In this document: in pieces, positions 5-8,589 of the stretch
Layout of the letters: each line of letters opens with the position of its first letter
Position numbering within the stretch: position 1 is the first letter of the stretch
The notes under the pieces: generated by a model
Seen by the model: the letters and a program-made list of their open reading frames with translations, nothing else
Told to the model about the DNA's origin: nothing
The model's database searches: none
From: Naegleria gruberi
Lineage: Eukaryota
NCBI GenBank assembly: GCA_000004985.1
Contig: GG739055.1
DNA length: 8,721 nt
Strand: one strand, 5' to 3'
Program-made: the position numbers and the translations under genes

Positions 5-950
5 AGAGGTATCTTGACTTTGAAGTATCCAATTGAACACGGTATTGTTACCAATTGGGACGATATGGAAAAGATCTGGCATCACANCTTTCTACAATGA
101 ATTGAGAGTTGCTCCAGAAGAACATCCAGTCTTGTTGACTGAAGCTCCTTTGAATCCAAAGGCTAACAGAGAAAAGATGACTCAAATTATGTTTGAAACT
201 TTCTCAGTTCCAGCTATGTATGTTGCTATTCAAGCTGTCTTGTCCTTGTATGCTTCTGGTAGAACTACTGGTATCGTTTTGGACTCTGGTGATGGTGTCT
301 CCCACACTGTTCCAATTTATGAAGGTTATGCTTTGCCACACGCCATTTTGAGATTGGATTTGGCTGGTCGTGACTTGACTGATTACTTGATGAAGATTTT
401 GATGGAAAGAGGTTACTCATTCAACACTACTGCTGAAAGAGAAATCGTCAGAGATATCAAGGAAAAGCTCTGTTATATTGCTTTGGACTTTGAAGCTGAA
501 ATGAAGGTTGCTGCTGAATCATCATCTGTTGAAAAGTCATACGAATTGCCAGACGGTAATGTCATTACTGTTGGTAACGAAAGATTCAGATGTCCAGAAG
601 TTTTGTTCCAACCAAACTTCATTGGTATGGAAGCTGCTGGTGTTCATGAAACTACTTTCAACTCCATTGGTAAATGTGATATTGATATCAGAAAGGACTT
701 GTACGGTAACGTTGTCTTGTCTGGTGGTACTACTATGTTCGAAGGTATTGCTGAAAGAATGACCAAGGAATTGACTGCTATGGCTCCAGCCTCCATGAAG
801 ATTAAGGTTGTTGCTCCACCAGAAAGAAAGTACTCTGTCTGGATTGGTGGTTCCATCTTGGCTTCATTGTCCACTTTCCAACAAATGTGGATCACAAAGG
901 AAGAATATGAGGATGCCGGCCCAGGTATTGTCCACAGAAAGTGTTTCTAA
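5..950 (+). CDS. ACT1: Actin, 5'-truncated partial CDS (the window starts inside the gene). It reads ...[66 protein letters not shown]...[32 protein letters not shown], with stop TAA at 948-950. The single ambiguous base N at position 87 is an extra base that shifts the frame: codons are aligned to position 5 upstream of it and to position 90 downstream. The ORF-track call 33..950, starting at a TTG, is an artefact of this.
   Basis: Translation matches canonical actin nearly residue for residue across about 305 aa. Strong yeast-like codon bias (TTG Leu, AGA Arg, GGT Gly, CCA Pro, GCT Ala, AAG Lys), as expected for a highly expressed gene. No in-frame stops except at the N-induced shift. Confidence 0.95.
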
Positions 951-1559: not shown

Positions 1560-3551
1560 TTATTGTTGTTGTTTTGGAGGTTTATAACCAAAGGCACCCA
1601 TAATCTTCAACAAATTTTGATAAACGAGATCGTTTGGAACAGCACAACCACAAATCATATCACAGTGAATCTTTGTTTCCATTGTTCTTTCTTGAGCATA
1701 TCCAAGCCATCTCTTTGGTTCAACACCACATTCTTCACATGCCTTGATAATGTCCTCCTTTGTGGCATTAACAGTTTGTAAAACAATACCCCAAGGTGTG
1801 ATTTTCTTTTCAAGGGTGAGCTTTTTGAAAACTGGAACATCCTCTGGTTCATCCTTTCCAGCTATTTGTGCCCATTGCATTTGATCAGCAGCAGTCAACT
1901 TCATGCACTTGATAATAAGTGGTGGTTCTTGACCTAATGATTTACAAATAGCTCTAATAAATCTGATTGAGTTATTCCATGCACCTGCAGTTGAGTTCCA
2001 TCCAGAGGTATTGACAGTTGTTGTTCCTCTTCTAGGAACCATCATATCTTTTTGACAACATGTATCAACTCCAGCGTCCCATTGAGAACTCAAAAATTTT
2101 GCCATTTGAATTTGTAAAGTCAATAATTGAGCCAAGACAGATGTTTTGAGTTCATCATTAATTCTAGAAATTACATCTTCAACAGGATATAATGATGCAA
2201 TTAATTCCCACTTGGTTTGCAATTCTCTTCCTTTCAATAAATTCATCAAAAATTGAAGAGCATCATCAAGACCTCCTTGTTGTTGACTGTCAATGGTAAA
2301 TGCCTTTCTAACACTGAATTCACTAACAGCTAAAGAAGTGAATACAATTGAAGGAATGTCAAATTTAGAGTCAGTTGTCAAAGTTTCCTTGATATCATTG
2401 AAGAGGTAGTATTCTGGAGTAAAGAATCTAGTAGCAAGACCGCTCTTATCAATCTTGGTTGAAATTGAAGCAACAAATGGATTGAATACATTTTGTAATC
2501 TTCCTCTCAATTTTCCTGCTTGTTCTACGGCCTTGTTATATTTCTTAAAGTGCCACAAACTCTTGTGTAATTGTTCTTTTCTCTCCTTATGGGTAAGAGT
2601 CTTGTAAACAGCAGTTAAGGTATTCTTTCTTTCTGGATAACCACCCTTTCTGTTACGATTCTTGAACTTGACAAATGATTCTTGTCCAATTCCACATAAT
2701 TTTTCCAATCTCTCCAACAAGATGTAATATTCTGTAATTGTTTTCATATCTTGAGTTGGATCAAGAGGTGGTTGTTCAGCTTCAGCCAAAATTTTGTTAA
2801 TCACATCAAATTTGATTGCTGGTAATGGAATTGTTGGTTTGAATGATTCTTTCATGTAAGAGGCTTGTGTTTGAGGTGTTTCGGTAACACCTGATTCAAT
2901 GAAATTATTGAGTGATTCCATTCCACTTCCATTCATAGCTTTCCAGCATAGTAATGACTTGATCTTTTGAATAAGTTGACCTCTAGCAATAATGAGTGCA
3001 GAATATTCTTCATCTTGACATTCTTCCATTTTCTTTTCAATCCAAGTCAACCATTTGAATAACATGAAGGCAGCATTTTGAGGCATATATCTACCTTGAA
3101 CAATCATTCCAGGAATGTGCTTGAAATAAATGTCAGAAATTTCCTTTTCTAAACGACTAAGTTTCTCTTGTTTGGCTTTGTCCATAAAATCAAACAAATC
3201 TGTAGGGCTCATTTTCAAAAACTTTTCTTTCAATTTCAAATCACTAGGATTCTTTATGGTCTTGGTTGAAAAGGTATAATAGTCAGAACATCCCAATTTG
3301 TCTTCAACATTATCGAAAAAGACCATCAAATGGTAATATGATGGAAATCCTTGATATTCTTGTTTAAAAGGATTATAGGAACTATGATTTTTATAGTAAT
3401 CATAACTAGGACGATATTGTTCACTTCCTACAATTTTGGTAGATTCGGACCAAAATTTTCTACATTCCCTAACTTCTTTGTCAAGATAAGGAACAACTTC
3501 AAGAGGAATGACTTTAATTTCTTCAGTTTTTTGTTGTTGATTGTTGCTCAT
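1560..3551 (-). CDS. Hypothetical conserved protein of 663 aa. The N-terminus is MSNNQQQK. The C-terminal region has a Cys/His cluster (C-x2-C-x20-H-C-x3-C-x-C), the motif DAGVDTCCQ, and a polyQ tail. No family assigned.
   Basis: Uninterrupted 1992-nt ORF with balanced amino-acid composition and yeast-like codon use. ATG at 3549-3551 sits about 55-110 nt downstream of A-tracts (minus sense) at 3607-3620 and 3655-3661. No P-loop, kinase, RING or HKD motifs recognised. Confidence 0.85.
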   Translation of the reverse strand: MSNNQQQKTEEIKVIPLEVVPYLDKEVRECRKFWSESTKIVGSEQYRPSYDYYKNHSSYNPFKQEYQGFPSYYHLMVFFDNVEDKLGCSDYYTFSTKTIKNPSDLKLKEKFLKMSPTDLFDFMDKAKQEKLSRLEKEISDIYFKHIPGMIVQGRYMPQNAAFMLFKWLTWIEKKMEECQDEEYSALIIARGQLIQKIKSLLCWKAMNGSGMESLNNFIESGVTETPQTQASYMKESFKPTIPLPAIKFDVINKILAEAEQPPLDPTQDMKTITEYYILLERLEKLCGIGQESFVKFKNRNRKGGYPERKNTLTAVYKTLTHKERKEQLHKSLWHFKKYNKAVEQAGKLRGRLQNVFNPFVASISTKIDKSGLATRFFTPEYYLFNDIKETLTTDSKFDIPSIVFTSLAVSEFSVRKAFTIDSQQQGGLDDALQFLMNLLKGRELQTKWELIASLYPVEDVISRINDELKTSVLAQLLTLQIQMAKFLSSQWDAGVDTCCQKDMMVPRRGTTTVNTSGWNSTAGAWNNSIRFIRAICKSLGQEPPLIIKCMKLTAADQMQWAQIAGKDEPEDVPVFKKLTLEKKITPWGIVLQTVNATKEDIIKACEECGVEPKRWLGYAQERTMETKIHCDMICGCAVPNDLVYQNLLKIMGAFGYKPPKQQQ

Positions 3552-3888: not shown

Positions 3889-5597
3889 NNNNNNNNNNNN
3901 NNNNNNNNNNNNNNNNNNNNNNNNNNNNNNNNNNNNNNNNNNNNNNNNNNNNNNNNNNNNNNNNNNNNNNNNNNNNNNNNNNNNNNNNNNNNNNNNNNNN
4001 NNNNNNNNNNNNNNNNNNNNNNNNNNNNNNNNNNNNNNNNNNNNNNNNNNNNNNNNNNNNNNNNNNNNNNNNNNNNNNNNNNNNNNNNNNNNNNNNNNNN
4101 NNNNNNNNNNNNNNNNNNNNNNNNNNNNNNNNNNNNNNNNNNNNNNNNNNNNNNNNNNNNNNNNNNNNNNNNNNNNNNNNNNNNNNNNNNNNNNNNNNNN
4201 NNNNNNNNNNNNNNNNNNNNNNNNNNNNNNNNNNNNNNNNNNNNNNNNNNNNNNNNNNNNNNNNNNNNNNNNNNNNNNNNNNNNNNNNNNNNNNNNNNNN
4301 NNNNNNNNNNNNNNNNNNNNNNNNNNNNNNNNNNNNNNNNNNNNNNNNNNNNNNNNNNNNNNNNNNNNNNNNNNNNNNNNNNNNNNNNNNNNNNNNNNNN
4401 NNNNNNNNNNNNNNNNNNNNNNNNNNNNNNNNNNNNNNNNNNNNNNNNNNNNNNNNNNNNNNNNNNNNNNNNNNNNNNNNNNNNNNNNNNNNNNNNNNNN
4501 NNNNNNNNNNNNNNNNNNNNNNNNNNNNNNNNNNNNNNNNNNNNNNNNNNNNNNNNNNNNNNNNNNNNNNNNNNNNNNNNNNNNNNNNNNNNNNNNNNNN
4601 NNNNNNNNNNNNNNNNNNNNNNNNNNNNNNNNNNNNNNNNNNNNNNNNNNNNNNNNNNNNNNNNNNNNNNNNNNNNNNNNNNNNNNNNNNNNNNNNNNNN
4701 NNNNNNNNNNNNNNNNNNNNNNNNNNNNNNNNNNNNNNNNNNNNNNNNNNNNNNNNNNNNNNNNNNNNNNNNNNNNNNNNNNNNNNNNNNNNNNNNNNNN
4801 NNNNNNNNNNNNNNNNNNNNNNNNNNNNNNNNNNNNNNNNNNNNNNNNNNNNNNNNNNNNNNNNNNNNNNNNNNNNNNNNNNNNNNNNNNNNNNNNNNNN
4901 NNNNNNNNNNNNNNNNNNNNNNNNNNNNNNNNNNNNNNNNNNNNNNNNNNNNNNNNNNNNNNNNNNNNNNNNNNNNNNNNNNNNNNNNNNNNNNNNNNNN
5001 NNNNNNNNNNNNNNNNNNNNNNNNNNNNNNNNNNNNNNNNNNNNNNNNNNNNNNNNNNNNNNNNNNNNNNNNNNNNNNNNNNNNNNNNNNNNNNNNNNNN
5101 NNNNNNNNNNNNNNNNNNNNNNNNNNNNNNNNNNNNNNNNNNNNNNNNNNNNNNNNNNNNNNNNNNNNNNNNNNNNNNNNNNNNNNNNNNNNNNNNNNNN
5201 NNNNNNNNNNNNNNNNNNNNNNNNNNNNNNNNNNNNNNNNNNNNNNNNNNNNNNNNNNNNNNNNNNNNNNNNNNNNNNNNNNNNNNNNNNNNNNNNNNNN
5301 NNNNNNNNNNNNNNNNNNNNNNNNNNNNNNNNNNNNNNNNNNNNNNNNNNNNNNNNNNNNNNNNNNNNNNNNNNNNNNNNNNNNNNNNNNNNNNNNNNNN
5401 NNNNNNNNNNNNNNNNNNNNNNNNNNNNNNNNNNNNNNNNNNNNNNNNNNNNNNNNNNNNNNNNNNNNNNNNNNNNNNNNNNNNNNNNNNNNNNNNNNNN
5501 NNNNNNNNNNNNNNNNNNNNNNNNNNNNNNNNNNNNNNNNNNNNNNNNNNNNNNNNNNNNNNNNNNNNNNNNNNNNNNNNNNNNNNNNNNNNNNNNN
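3889..5597. other. Assembly or scaffold gap of 1709 consecutive N.
   Basis: Run of N from 3889 to 5597. All X-containing ORFs across it (3863..5623 + and the central part of 3706..7494 -) are artefacts. Confidence 0.99.
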
Positions 5598-7494
5598 TGA
5601 CTAAATGTGTATCTTTAGAATAAATATTAAAACCATACTTTCCATCTTTCTGAATAGATTCATACTTGATAGCATATTCATCACCAAGAATAGTTTCTGA
5701 GAGAGGCCTTTCACTTTCTATCTGGTCAATAGATGAGGGATAGAATATAAAATCGTTATTTTCGCTAATTTCGATACCAATTTCACTTTCATCAGACCAA
5801 TCTGATTCATACCCATCGTCCTTTGGACTTTCTTCTTTGGTCTGATTTATATTGCTCTCCGATTGAATTCCAAACAATACTCTATCATTTGGATCATCAA
5901 ACTCAATTTCAAAGTCAGGATCATCTTCATCAGTGTCGTAATTAATTGACAACATGAGATTTTGTTCATTAATTTCAGTAACTATACTAGTAATGTTTTC
6001 AGAGCTAATCTCCTTCATTGAAAGGGAAGATAAATGATTCTTTAGAGCTTCTTCATCAATTGAACTTTCCTTAAAACATCCATTATATGCATTGAAAGCT
6101 ACCAATATAAAATTCTTCAAACACAAGTCCGTCATGAAAAATTTGCAAATTTCAGATGTTAAATTGAATAATTCAATGCAAAGTCTTTCTATTTCCTGTT
6201 GCATAATTGCCTGTGATGATGGACTAATAATGGTATCAAATCTATAACTTCCTAAAATGACTTTCGTCAATCCATTAAAAAATGCTTTGGGAATTATCAT
6301 TTCCTTTCTTTTCTTGAATTTAGGTTCATATTCATTACCTTCTCCAGCCTCGAATGCTCTCTTCTTGTTGTTTTCTTCTAGTCCTATACGTTTTCCAATA
6401 CGAACTGAAGGATAAACATCTATGAAATCATGTCTAGCTTGTACTATTTCTGTATCCTTCAATAGATCAGTAATGTTTTTGGATAATTCTTTTTCAGTTT
6501 CTACACACTGTACCCAAGGATCTTCACTGTCAACATTATGAATTTTAGATCTTATTGTTTTGATATCAATAAATTCCTCCTCTTCATCTTCATCACTAAC
6601 TTCTAACTCTTCATCAGAATCTGAAAGCCCTTCATCAATATAGTAATCTCTTTCTAACAACACATTCTTGTTGAGAGGGATTCCATTTGGACCCTTATCA
6701 ATTTGTAACTTTTCTAAATCGTCTTCCTCTGTTTCATCCAAATCAAAAATTTTCATGTTCGCCTCATCGAATATATTCTTATTCGATTCGACATGGTTTT
6801 CCAGATGTTCTTTGTAGGTTTCTTTCAATAGATTGTAAATCTTGTTGGAAGGCTCGTCTTTGGGTGCTGCAGTGTACATTCTGTATGCAAGAAGTGCGGG
6901 AGAGATTAATTGAGATTGAAATGGATTGGCTTTGTACTTTTCGATCAATAATTTCACAATCTCCACATTCTTTCCTCTAATTGCGTAATGTAAAATGTTT
7001 AGTCCAGCCCCATCTCTCTTGTAGCAAGCCCCGTATGAAGATACTATGTTATAGCTGGATGGCTCTCCTTCAAGAATTCCTGTTCTCAATAGAGTATCTA
7101 TTCTATTGTTTCCATTATCAGAACGATATTCCAGACACCACTTTACCAAGTCCAAATTTCCAATCCAAATAGCCAAGAATTGAAACGTAAATTCTGTTGA
7201 GAAAATTGGGATAAACTCTTCCCTTTCAAAATTCTTTCCTTTGGACAATTGATTCACGAATTTCATGCTTGTTACTTGTAATCCAATAGTATTTTCCAAA
7301 AAATCACATACCCAAACAGCAGCATTGATTTCACTATTTAAATATTTGATTTTCATACCTGAAAGGTATTGCACAATCCAGATCAAGTATTGTCTCGGAA
7401 TTAAACTACTATTGAAATAGTCCACTTCAATCCAATGACTTACCAATGGTAGGGACATGTACTCATCATTGGCTAAAAACTCTGCTATATTCAT
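5598..7494 (-). CDS. Large protein, N-terminal 632 aa, with its 3' end lost in the gap. An ankyrin-repeat region lies at about nt 6909-7104 (GAGLNILHYAIRGKNVEIVKLLIEKYKANP). Strongly acidic D/E tracts lie at about nt 6549-6624 (DEGLSDSDEELEVSDEDEEEEF) and nt 5860-5934 (DTDEDDPDFEIEFDDPND).
   Basis: Continuous ORF of 1897 nt from ATG 7492-7494 down to the gap edge. Carries the ankyrin consensus (LH.A...G..E.VK.LL). Low-complexity acidic linkers are typical of eukaryotic regulatory proteins. Confidence 0.85.
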
Positions 7495-7565
7495 ATTAAA
7501 AACATCACTCGGTCAAACAACCTTCTCAACATTTTGATTATCCCCAATTATTGACCCAATTAATT

Positions 7566-8000
7566 TCAACATGGTTCAAATAATTTGCCAAACAAATACC
7601 TAATACATGTCGATACTCTAACTGATCCAAAATATGAAAGATTATCCTCTCCGATGGCCAATCTAACAAGAAACTTTATAACCATATTGTCTGGAAATTC
7701 CACCAATTTATCAATCCAACCCTTGGTAATTGTAATAAAATCATCCTGTTCAATTATGCCTGTATAACCACCTTGTGTTCTGGTACGCAATTCTAAATCA
7801 TGAAGCCAAATATGTAATTCAAAACCAGCAGCTAATTGATTCCTCACCAAATGCTTCCAAAATACCTCCGTCTCAGTAATGTGGTAGAATGATGTACAAA
7901 CCGATCGAAATTGGAAAATGTTATTGTGGAGATGATACGGATCGTGACTGTATGAGGTGATGTGTAATAAAATTTCGGAAGGTAAATCAGTAAGGATCAT
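7566..8000 (-). CDS. F-box protein, 144 aa. The N-terminal F-box is LTDLPSEILLHITSY...RSVCTSFYHI...FWKHLV. It ends with TGA at 7566-7568.
   Basis: Matches the F-box consensus L-P-x-E-I-L-x-x-I-x-x-Y/L ... VCK/T-x-F/W ... W. ORF codon usage agrees with the neighbouring genes. ATG at 8000 is preceded by a TATAAT-like element (minus sense) about 30 nt upstream. Confidence 0.75.
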   Translation of the reverse strand: MILTDLPSEILLHITSYSHDPYHLHNNIFQFRSVCTSFYHITETEVFWKHLVRNQLAAGFELHIWLHDLELRTRTQGGYTGIIEQDDFITITKGWIDKLVEFPDNMVIKFLVRLAIGEDNLSYFGSVRVSTCIRYLFGKLFEPC

Positions 8001-8157
8001 CTTCTGAATTTTTTAATTAAAATGTTTTTGAAAATTATAAATTTTGAATGTGAAATATGTTAGACAGGTGGCCAAGCACTAACAAGACTCCATAAGATTA
8101 GAAAGGAAACAATCGGTTAGTTTCGTCTAAGCCATCATCAATTTCATCTAACTAAAT

Positions 8158-8589
8158 TTATTGTAACACTGTAATGTCAATCATTAAGACTCCATTAATA
8201 GGTTCAATAGCTGGTAAATTAGGAACAACCATGTTGCTACCAGCAATTGAAATCTTGTCAAGTTCTGCTTGATAGGTATTTGCATAGGAACGTAAATTTG
8301 TGAAAACAGTATTGTCATAGTCATCAGCAGCTCCAAATATTTGTTGCACTCCACATGAAACTTTAGCAACAACGTATTGCTTTTTACAATCAAATTTACT
8401 GGCAAGAAAACTAGTTAGCTCAGTGATGGAAATTGAATATGGAGAGGAAGAGAATTCAAGTTTCATGGTAAGGTGATTCTGTTCTTTTGTGTAGGATGTT
8501 GCTTTAATGGCCTTTGTTAGAGGGTTCCTAATGGCAGAACGGGAAATGATGTTAAAAGTGATAGAGAGAGTGATTGGACCTGTGTGCAT
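8158..8589 (-). CDS. Hypothetical protein of 143 aa (MHTGPITLSITFNIISRS...). No recognisable domain.
   Basis: 432-nt ORF with a good yeast start context (cataaaaaATG). Varied codon composition. No signal peptide or transmembrane segment. Confidence 0.6.
   Translation of the reverse strand: MHTGPITLSITFNIISRSAIRNPLTKAIKATSYTKEQNHLTMKLEFSSSPYSISITELTSFLASKFDCKKQYVVAKVSCGVQQIFGAADDYDNTVFTNLRSYANTYQAELDKISIAGSNMVVPNLPAIEPINGVLMIDITVLQ

Follow-up and report, generated by a model that had tools for sequence, protein, structure and literature searches.

F-box proteins are described as the substrate receptors of Skp1-cullin-F-box (SCF) ubiquitin ligases (Kipreos and Pagano 2000, cited in PMC8296547). 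The feature they share with the locus studied here is an N-terminal F-box of ∼45 residues followed by a protein-interaction module. The stretch of DNA that we analyzed, referred to below as the window, spans 8,721 nt and makes up an entire scaffold of the Naegleria gruberi NEG-M assembly; it carries on its minus strand a 144-aa F-box open reading frame (ORF), a gap of 71 nt, and an ankyrin ORF in a different frame. The initial annotation had pointed out the short F-box ORF, the 71-nt gap, the change of frame and a TGA codon at 7513-7515, and the ORF list, Pfam and translation agree with it on each. Comparison with homologous sequences makes it very probable that the two ORFs are the N- and C-terminal pieces of one gene, broken by a frame shift and a stop codon in a variable linker. 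The elements of the locus on which this argument is built are as follows.

7566-8000, minus strand: F-box ORF of 144 aa (ORF list; ATG at 8000, TGA stop at 7568-7566), the probable N-terminal part of the family protein.
7842-7991, minus strand: F-box motif, residues 4-53 of that ORF (LTDLPSEILLHITSY...VFWKHL), from Pfam.
7495-7565, minus strand: spacer of 71 nt, read in the ankyrin frame; by homology, a probable former coding linker.
5598-7494, minus strand: ankyrin ORF, 632 codons visible before it runs into an N gap, the probable C-terminal part of the family protein.
6919-7176, minus strand: ankyrin-repeat region, residues 107-192 of the ankyrin ORF, from Pfam Ank models and a profile search of the PDB.

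The F-box ORF contains the F-box and the first helices of a helical module, and its C-terminus reads ...CIRYLFGKLFEPC*. Residues 4-53 match the Pfam F-box-like model PF12937 with E = 5.6e-9 (36.1 bits, cutoff 24.3), and the F-box model PF00646 scores 22.2 bits (cutoff 20.5). The ankyrin ORF starts with MNIAEFLANDEY (ATG at 7494-7492; early part MNIAEFLAND...SHWIEVDYFNSSLIPRQYLIWIV...), and its residues 107-192 exceed the cutoffs of Ank_5 (32.3 bits, cutoff 27), Ank_4 (28, cutoff 22.7), Ank (26.6, cutoff 21.1) and Ank_3 (23.6, cutoff 22.3). One repeat is clearly recognisable (GLNILHYAIRGKNVEIVKLLIEKYKANPF) and one is weaker; at this block the PDB profile search returned matches to ankyrin repeats exclusively. 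The ankyrin part of the "large ankyrin" protein first proposed is therefore upheld by Pfam, but its size is not: the listed 1262-aa ORF, like the 586-aa ORF also listed across the gap, is an artefact of translating a 1,709-nt run of N.

Used as the query of an exhaustive phmmer search through 1.84 billion representative proteins, the F-box ORF gave 11 matches, among which P0003 and P0004 were set aside as unrelated repeat proteins. The closest relatives are heterolobosean proteins annotated as hypothetical or uncharacterised: the N. gruberi paralogue NAEGRDRAFT_72102 (P0010, XP_002672802, 881 aa), Naegleria fowleri FDP41_012724 (P0009, XP_044565649, "F-box domain-containing protein", 1047 aa), and three proteins of Willaertia magna (P0005, P0013 and P0011, with 837, 938 and 998 aa, respectively), where the family loci are ABK040_015985, ABK040_012055 and ABK040_002009. 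To these are added two metagenome-contig proteins, P0006 and P0017 (557 and 914 aa, from JGI/IMG and ENA). Identity is ∼30% between the N. gruberi paralogues and 26-35% between the window copy and its heterolobosean relatives.

The window copy shares with these relatives the same order of conserved blocks. In the homologues the F-box is followed by WID...FL..IS....L.Y.G....YLFxKLxEP, and the F-box ORF ends with the latter block; then comes a poorly conserved linker of variable length (17-45 residues), after which the series FNxNLLxFL ... W...D....IPRQYLL.IV..FS ... LQHLAxW ... GLTxLHYA (the ankyrin repeat) ... ANPF begins, and the ankyrin ORF begins with the same series. An acidic stretch, a putative histone H3-like fold and a C-terminal ...IxWI motif complete the shared layout. 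The difference is that every full-length relative has the F-box and ankyrin parts in a single chain, the heterolobosean ones being single polypeptides of 837-1047 aa, while a frame change and a TGA separate the two parts in the window copy. The only short match, P0002 (138 aa, 50% identical), was assembled from soil metagenome reads and is most likely a fragment; because it ends before the YLFxKLxEP block, it is uninformative on whether a stand-alone F-box gene exists. The idea of a fused protein, which was to stand or fall with the orthologues, thus survives this comparison.

We quantified the collinearity with a family profile built from the seven full-length homologues, with the window left out. 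The F-box ORF matches profile positions 5-180 (86.7 bits, E = 5e-29), and the ankyrin ORF matches positions 219-823 (204.5 bits, E = 1.3e-64). When the complete frames are compared, the F-box frame covers positions 2-183 and the ankyrin frame continues from 178, so that no position is skipped, and a MAFFT alignment with the homologues is likewise collinear through both ORFs. The sequence comparison thus indicates that the adjacency of the two ORFs is not a matter of chance, as they are consecutive parts of one family profile. That a stand-alone F-box gene and an unrelated ankyrin gene merely lie very close together is scarcely credible. Each ORF does have its own ATG and stop as the sequence stands, and the neighbouring same-strand spacer (8001-8157), the sole other measurable one in the window, is also short at 157 nt; on the other side, the two ORFs match consecutive, non-overlapping parts of the profile, the spacer fills the positions between them, and all full-length homologues are single chains. 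Fusion of these chains by annotation is itself unlikely, as two of them appear to be metagenome gene calls. Metagenome gene callers normally work without splicing, and for this reason the frames of P0006 and P0017 are probably continuous and unspliced, as judged from their gene-call origin.

An ordinary intergenic spacer should show no coding homology in any frame. In 7495-7565, the 27 residues encoded in the ankyrin frame add 8.4 bits to the family profile match, compared with 3.8 and 0.7 bits in the other frames; among 500 shuffled spacers, the gain is 0.35 ± 1.3 bits and as much as 8.4 in 2. Base composition was also considered as a coding test for this spacer and proved non-discriminating, with a G+C content of 0.31 in the spacer, 0.29-0.31 in spacers and 0.33-0.36 in coding sequence.

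The break itself consists of two lesions, and a short upstream ORF lies across the second of them.

7570-7575, minus strand: frame-change site, from the MAFFT alignment and the family profile.
7513-7515, minus strand: in-frame TGA, the second ORF-breaking lesion, from translation of the ankyrin frame upstream of the ATG (...NQNVEKVV*PSDVFNM).
7491-7532, minus strand: upstream ORF of 13 codons, read from the sequence (ATG at 7532-7530; its TGA at 7493-7491 overlaps the ankyrin ATG as ATGA).

At the first lesion, family homology runs through ...YLFGKLFEP in the F-box frame (P at 7574-7572) and continues with (T)MLKLIGS in the ankyrin frame (T at 7575-7573, M at 7572-7570); the counterparts of this junction in the homologues, from the MAFFT comparison, are LFEPAMLLVREW, LFMPCMLKVRGW and LLEPAVKLVNSW. 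Because zero nucleotides are left over between the two frames of homology, the frame change is an indel, with the same effect as the loss of 1 or 4 nt or the gain of 2 nt. Repairs of a 1-nt or 4-nt deletion (EP-MLKLI, EPCMLKLI and EPTMLKLI) have equal profile scores. The frame change creates the TGA at 7568-7566 that ends the F-box ORF, and would thereby at once give rise to the apparent 144-aa F-box protein. Past this point, the ankyrin frame over 7495-7575 reads TMLKLIGSIIGDNQNVEKVV*PSDVFN, and in the MAFFT alignment the stretch ...VV*PSDVFNMNIAEFL corresponds to QIVFNTNLLNVI and DLFFNKNLLQFL in homologues (also ...EWNDQIVFNTNLLNVI and ...CQDLFFNKNLLQFL). Since the residues on both sides of it align with homologues, the TGA at 7515-7513 is an in-frame nonsense codon in a variable loop, that is, a probable second lesion in the continuing frame. 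The two lesions are 57 nt apart and fall in the linker that follows YLFxKLxEP, where the protein is conserved least; neither is accompanied by an N or by a homopolymer run.

The start of the ankyrin ORF would then have no special significance: its ATG (7494-7492) is merely the next in-frame Met, six codons past the TGA, with an A at -3, and it falls at a non-conserved position of the conserved motif FN-x-N-[IL]-x-x-F-L. The 71 nt would be neither a squeezed intergenic region holding a terminator and a promoter, nor an intron. The expectation of the initial annotation that a single protein would require both an indel and a stop error is borne out by the homologue alignment, the profile and the scores of read-through reconstructions. 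The break itself is ordinary: a frameshift and a nonsense codon, or errors that mimic both, in a redundant draft scaffold. By the same token, the apparent "F-box-only gene" and its "71-nt intergenic region" are no evidence for unusual packing or odd promoters in Naegleria, and counts of F-box proteins, ankyrin proteins or intergenic distances in N. gruberi would mislead at this locus.

Could the two ORFs be joined in the cell without any damage to the gene? A short, possibly non-canonical intron had been suggested, and a programmed frameshift combined with read-through of the TGA or its decoding as selenocysteine would have the same effect. N. gruberi has spliceosomal introns, and when all GT/GC...AG pairs were enumerated, 35 were found that would remove the TGA and restore an open frame; the best candidates that keep LFEP are GTTGAA...ATATAG (86 nt) and ...TTTTTAG (98 nt). 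However, no spliced product exceeds 132.9 bits with the family profile, whereas the read-through reconstructions reach 160.5-161.8 bits, so that all 35 splices lie at least 28 bits below read-through. None of the candidates combines a consensus-like donor with the conserved blocks, and those that keep LFEP use the poor donor GTTGAA. The homology resumes in the other frame with zero nucleotides left for an intron and no profile position missing, and the probably unspliced frames of P0006 and P0017 run across the break. As for recoding, inspection by eye found no slippery heptamer of the form X XXY YYZ at 7566-7580 (...UUU GAA CCA UGU UGA), and Rfam found no selenocysteine insertion sequence in the visible sequence, the 3' untranslated region being hidden in the N gap. 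Both mechanisms are thus very improbable. A perfect donor-like GGTAAGT at 7444-7438 on the minus strand, in ankyrin ORF codons L-V-S, was rejected as an intron boundary because family homology is continuous across it.

Several observations weigh against a simply broken gene, and they should be set beside the evidence given so far. The homology of the 27-residue linker amounts to no more than 8.4 bits. The ankyrin ATG stands close behind the TGA and both flanking ORFs are fully open, over 432 nt and more than 1,896 nt in DNA of 33% G+C, which fits selection on two proteins or a very recent event. Finally, the break coincides with an evolutionary module boundary. The metagenomic paralogues P0012 and P0017 are identical at 164 of 166 positions up to ...HHLFMP and only ∼38% identical thereafter, with this breakpoint at the same motif as the break in the window. 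The pattern suggests gene conversion or module exchange confined to the F-box half, and, because the break lies at this boundary, a tolerated natural split is conceivable rather than mere damage.

P0012 (ENA ERZ27315067 k141_658607, ∼800-830) has a lesion of its own, an in-frame TGA within the conserved block IPRQYL*FVLEHF, after which homology resumes in frame for 75 more codons. Because of this second case, broken copies may be common in the family. The lesion in P0012 and that in the window are both TGA, whereas TAA serves for the three ordinary stops of the window.

Whether the lesions belong to the organism or to the assembly depends on the standing of the scaffold and of its gene models, for which a further feature is needed.

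3889-5597, no strand: scaffold gap of 1,709 N, seen in the sequence, which hides the last ∼13 codons, the stop and the 3' untranslated region of the ankyrin gene.

Heterozygous diploidy has been described for N. gruberi (Fritz-Laylin et al. 2010, cited in PMC9928731), and the window is most likely a second haplotype or redundant copy of a region in a 216-kb scaffold (216,243 nt). From its Met77 onward, the ankyrin ORF is identical at 555 of 556 residues to NAEGRDRAFT_74889 (P0001, EFC37302.1), a "predicted protein" of 569 aa encoded on the larger scaffold, and the P0001 model begins at this internal Met77. P0001 continues 13 residues beyond the gap edge and ends ...THLVKRLITNSQVDTQL; because this C-terminus aligns with those of the family and reaches position 876 of 884 in the profile, the true stop of the ankyrin gene should lie ∼13 codons inside the gap, which possibly hides another gene too. 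On the window scaffold itself, the annotated model is NAEGRDRAFT_60081 (P0018, EFC35717.1, 1402 aa), which falls in the same 90% cluster as P0001 and is a chimera of three genes: a 143-aa ORF (start at 8589), most of the ankyrin ORF, and a 663-aa gene. Its splice between ISIAG and MKIKYLN omits the entire F-box ORF and codons 1-46 of the ankyrin ORF, and it then crosses the N gap by an "intron" to enter the 663-aa gene. Both public models of the locus are therefore wrong, and correcting them is part of the value of this analysis.

The F-box ORF is absent from public protein models by exact look-ups and exhaustive protein search, and it is unannotated in both P0001 and P0018. A word-indexed protein search with it also found no match, although that search missed members of its own query alignment as well, so that it carries little weight. 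Metagenome scans gave 147 pattern matches with the repaired protein, 0 of them confirmed, and 0 matches with the 21-mer adjoining the break.

That the low-coverage scaffold has a faulty consensus at both lesions, and that the organism has one intact ORF of ∼815 codons, is an explanation to be taken seriously, at somewhat less than an even chance. The scaffold is tiny, redundant and gapped, and its single N at position 87, in the actin coding sequence, has the effect of an extra base and throws the frame off (catcacaNctttctacaatga), as had been claimed from the start; the actin gene is also truncated by the scaffold start. This N is a mark of locally poor consensus quality. Two lesions 57 nt apart in a gene otherwise clean over 2.3 kb form the pattern of a local low-quality patch, and we estimate that neutral decay would put two random lesions so close together ∼5% of the time. 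On the other hand, the scaffold is otherwise accurate, with 1 difference per 556 residues from the other copy and three other long ORFs open, and neither an N nor a homopolymer accompanies the lesions. It would also be odd, were the ORF intact, that the model on the well-covered 216-kb scaffold starts at Met77 and that the F-box is missing from all models; the argument is a weak one, given that the predictor passed over the F-box ORF of the window scaffold too. Weighing these points, we lean slightly toward lesions that exist in the organism.

Real lesions might be recent and have produced a disabled allele or a young pseudogene, in which at most the 144-aa F-box fragment is made and the ankyrin/H3-like part is translated poorly or not at all. 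The family is multi-copy and fast-evolving, as the ∼30% identity between the N. gruberi paralogues illustrates, so that the gene may be redundant, and the TGA of P0012 in IPRQYL is a parallel. The 13-codon upstream ORF overlaps the ankyrin ATG and would hinder scanning ribosomes on transcripts that start upstream of 7532, and reinitiation past a 144-codon ORF is inefficient in eukaryotes. Neutral decay, however, would not be expected to cluster both lesions in the linker or to leave both flanking ORFs intact, and a disabled copy is on balance somewhat unlikely.

Less likely still is natural gene fission, in which the F-box and ankyrin/H3-like modules have become two proteins from two transcripts, with the downstream promoter inside the last part of the F-box ORF or close to it. 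It draws support from the position of the break, exactly at the P0012/P0017 module boundary and in the sole poorly conserved, length-variable stretch of the protein; from the small cost of ∼26 linker residues lost; from the A at -3 of the nearby ATG; and from the shortness of the neighbouring same-strand spacer. Once the frame had shifted, a second lesion in the untranslated remnant would have been neutral, which would explain the clustering. Against fission, the 71 nt are only half of that neighbouring spacer, it is hard to see what an F-box would do without a part that binds substrate, and the spacer still resembles a coding linker. Because this linker is still recognisable, the event would be young, and any fission very young.

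The structural context bears on the same point. In the AlphaFold model of the intact paralogue NAEGRDRAFT_72102 (residues 1-413; predicted template modelling score 0.71), the predicted local distance difference test (pLDDT) is 70-94 over residues 121-413 and ∼40-55 in the F-box part. The break corresponds to a kink between helices 162-176 and 178-187, and the TGA falls in the loop 188-197. The helices on both sides of the split thus belong to a single unbroken stretch (121-413), modelled with confidence and running on into the ankyrin repeat, and the split is not at a joint between obviously independent domains, which speaks against fission. A Foldseek search with this model gave weak matches to ankyrin solenoids (best E = 3e-3). 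For real lesions, the closeness of the two, the open ORFs on either side and the ATG nearby would fit a fission that was tolerated, or one initial lesion after which the untranslated remnant changed neutrally; a real split would make the locus a rarely seen case of a gene dividing at a module boundary. Extreme packing with a promoter inside the F-box ORF, as originally proposed, finds no support as the primary explanation; at most it could follow from real lesions in a gene whose halves are both still expressed.

The C-terminal part of the broken gene contains one more putative module, downstream of the acidic stretch.

6067-6318, minus strand: putative H3-like histone-fold segment, residues ∼393-476 of the ankyrin ORF (KKRKEMIIPKAFFNGL...ILVAFNAYN), from the family profile against the PDB.

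The family profile of this segment (A2) matches PDB histone H3 residues 56-130 with E = 2e-7, an alignment that covers the end of alphaN, alpha1, alpha2 and alpha3. The segment is conserved in P0010, P0011, P0013 and P0017 as well as in P0009 (residues 807-861), whose whole protein matches Pfam Histone with E = 0.014. Pfam Histone is matched by 2 of 6 family members (best E = 2.8e-4), and the window's own segment gave no match to it. In the AlphaFold model of the window ankyrin ORF, helices 403-413, 425-452 and 460-473 form a short-long-short pattern at pLDDT 55-68; the mean pLDDT of this model is 49.7, and for that reason it was excluded from the fold search. Judged from the profile match, the segment after the acidic stretch would be a histone H3-like fold at the level of the family.

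The family protein would accordingly be laid out as F-box, helical module, ankyrin repeat(s), acidic stretch, histone H3-like fold and short conserved C-terminus. By analogy with other F-box proteins, the intact protein should be an SCF-type substrate receptor: it would dock to Skp1/cullin through the F-box and present the target of the ankyrin/H3-like part for ubiquitylation. In the deposited sequence, the docking module would be severed from the binding part. A heterolobosean family found in Naegleria, Willaertia and environmental relatives thus appears to join an F-box, ankyrin repeats and an H3-like fold. The architecture is unusual. We did not find it described, nor did our literature search find a description of any F-box protein with an H3-type histone fold, Naegleria included, or a paper naming these loci. 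If functional, the family would point to a ubiquitin ligase whose receptor targets histones or chromatin. A bolder version, which we consider quite unlikely, holds that a very young fission has split the SCF-docking F-box from the ankyrin/H3-like module at an existing boundary with both halves expressed, and that the H3-type fold of the family could pair with H4 or occupy an H3 site and so bring the ligase directly to histones or chromatin.

The window has several further features. The 663-aa ORF (1560-3551, minus strand) and the 143-aa ORF (8158-8589, minus strand) gave one chance-level Pfam match and otherwise none at E ≤ 1. A tRNA-like element at 1387-1459 on the plus strand, within the 609 nt that separate the convergent actin and 663-aa genes, scores 26.2 bits with the Rfam tRNA model (gathering score 29, E = 0.047) and has a good T-arm (GGTTCAATTCC); ARAGORN made no call, and the element may be a decayed tRNA gene. 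A match to Rfam mir-3533 at 624-707 (plus strand) in the actin coding sequence, at 33.6 bits against a gathering score of 104, was rejected as actin similarity and not an RNA gene.

How does this gene compare with better-known systems? It is instructive to take the comparison module by module. In the family described here, the module downstream of the F-box consists of one or two ankyrin repeats and an H3-like fold, instead of WD40, leucine-rich or kelch repeats.

The combination of an F-box-type Skp1-docking motif with ankyrin repeats recurs in the AnkB protein of Legionella pneumophila (∼170 aa) and in poxvirus ankyrin/PRANC proteins, in which the PRANC motif is C-terminal, and both Naegleria and Willaertia are hosts of Legionella. 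Unlike the heterolobosean family, however, AnkB and the PRANC proteins have neither the helical module nor the histone fold, and the PDB profile search, which gave just generic ankyrin repeats, showed no sequence relationship. With the histone fold of H3 and CENP-A, the family shares sequence motifs, PxxFxRLVxEI and DFKTDLRF corresponding to IPKRAFNRVINEI and DYKNEVLF, respectively. The difference is that the fold of the family is embedded after an acidic stretch in a protein of 800-1000 aa and has no H3 tail.

As for the break, the heterolobosean relatives have all blocks of the family in single chains; the window copy matches the profile collinearly but lacks an uninterrupted reading frame over them. 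In this respect it resembles genes split by a frameshift or nonsense codon, such as unitary pseudogenes, null alleles and artefacts of draft assemblies, in which adjacent ORFs on the same strand likewise match consecutive parts of a homologue with a coding-like stretch between them. It differs from them in that both of its lesions lie in one variable linker at a module boundary and both flanks are intact, an arrangement that a tolerated fission would share.

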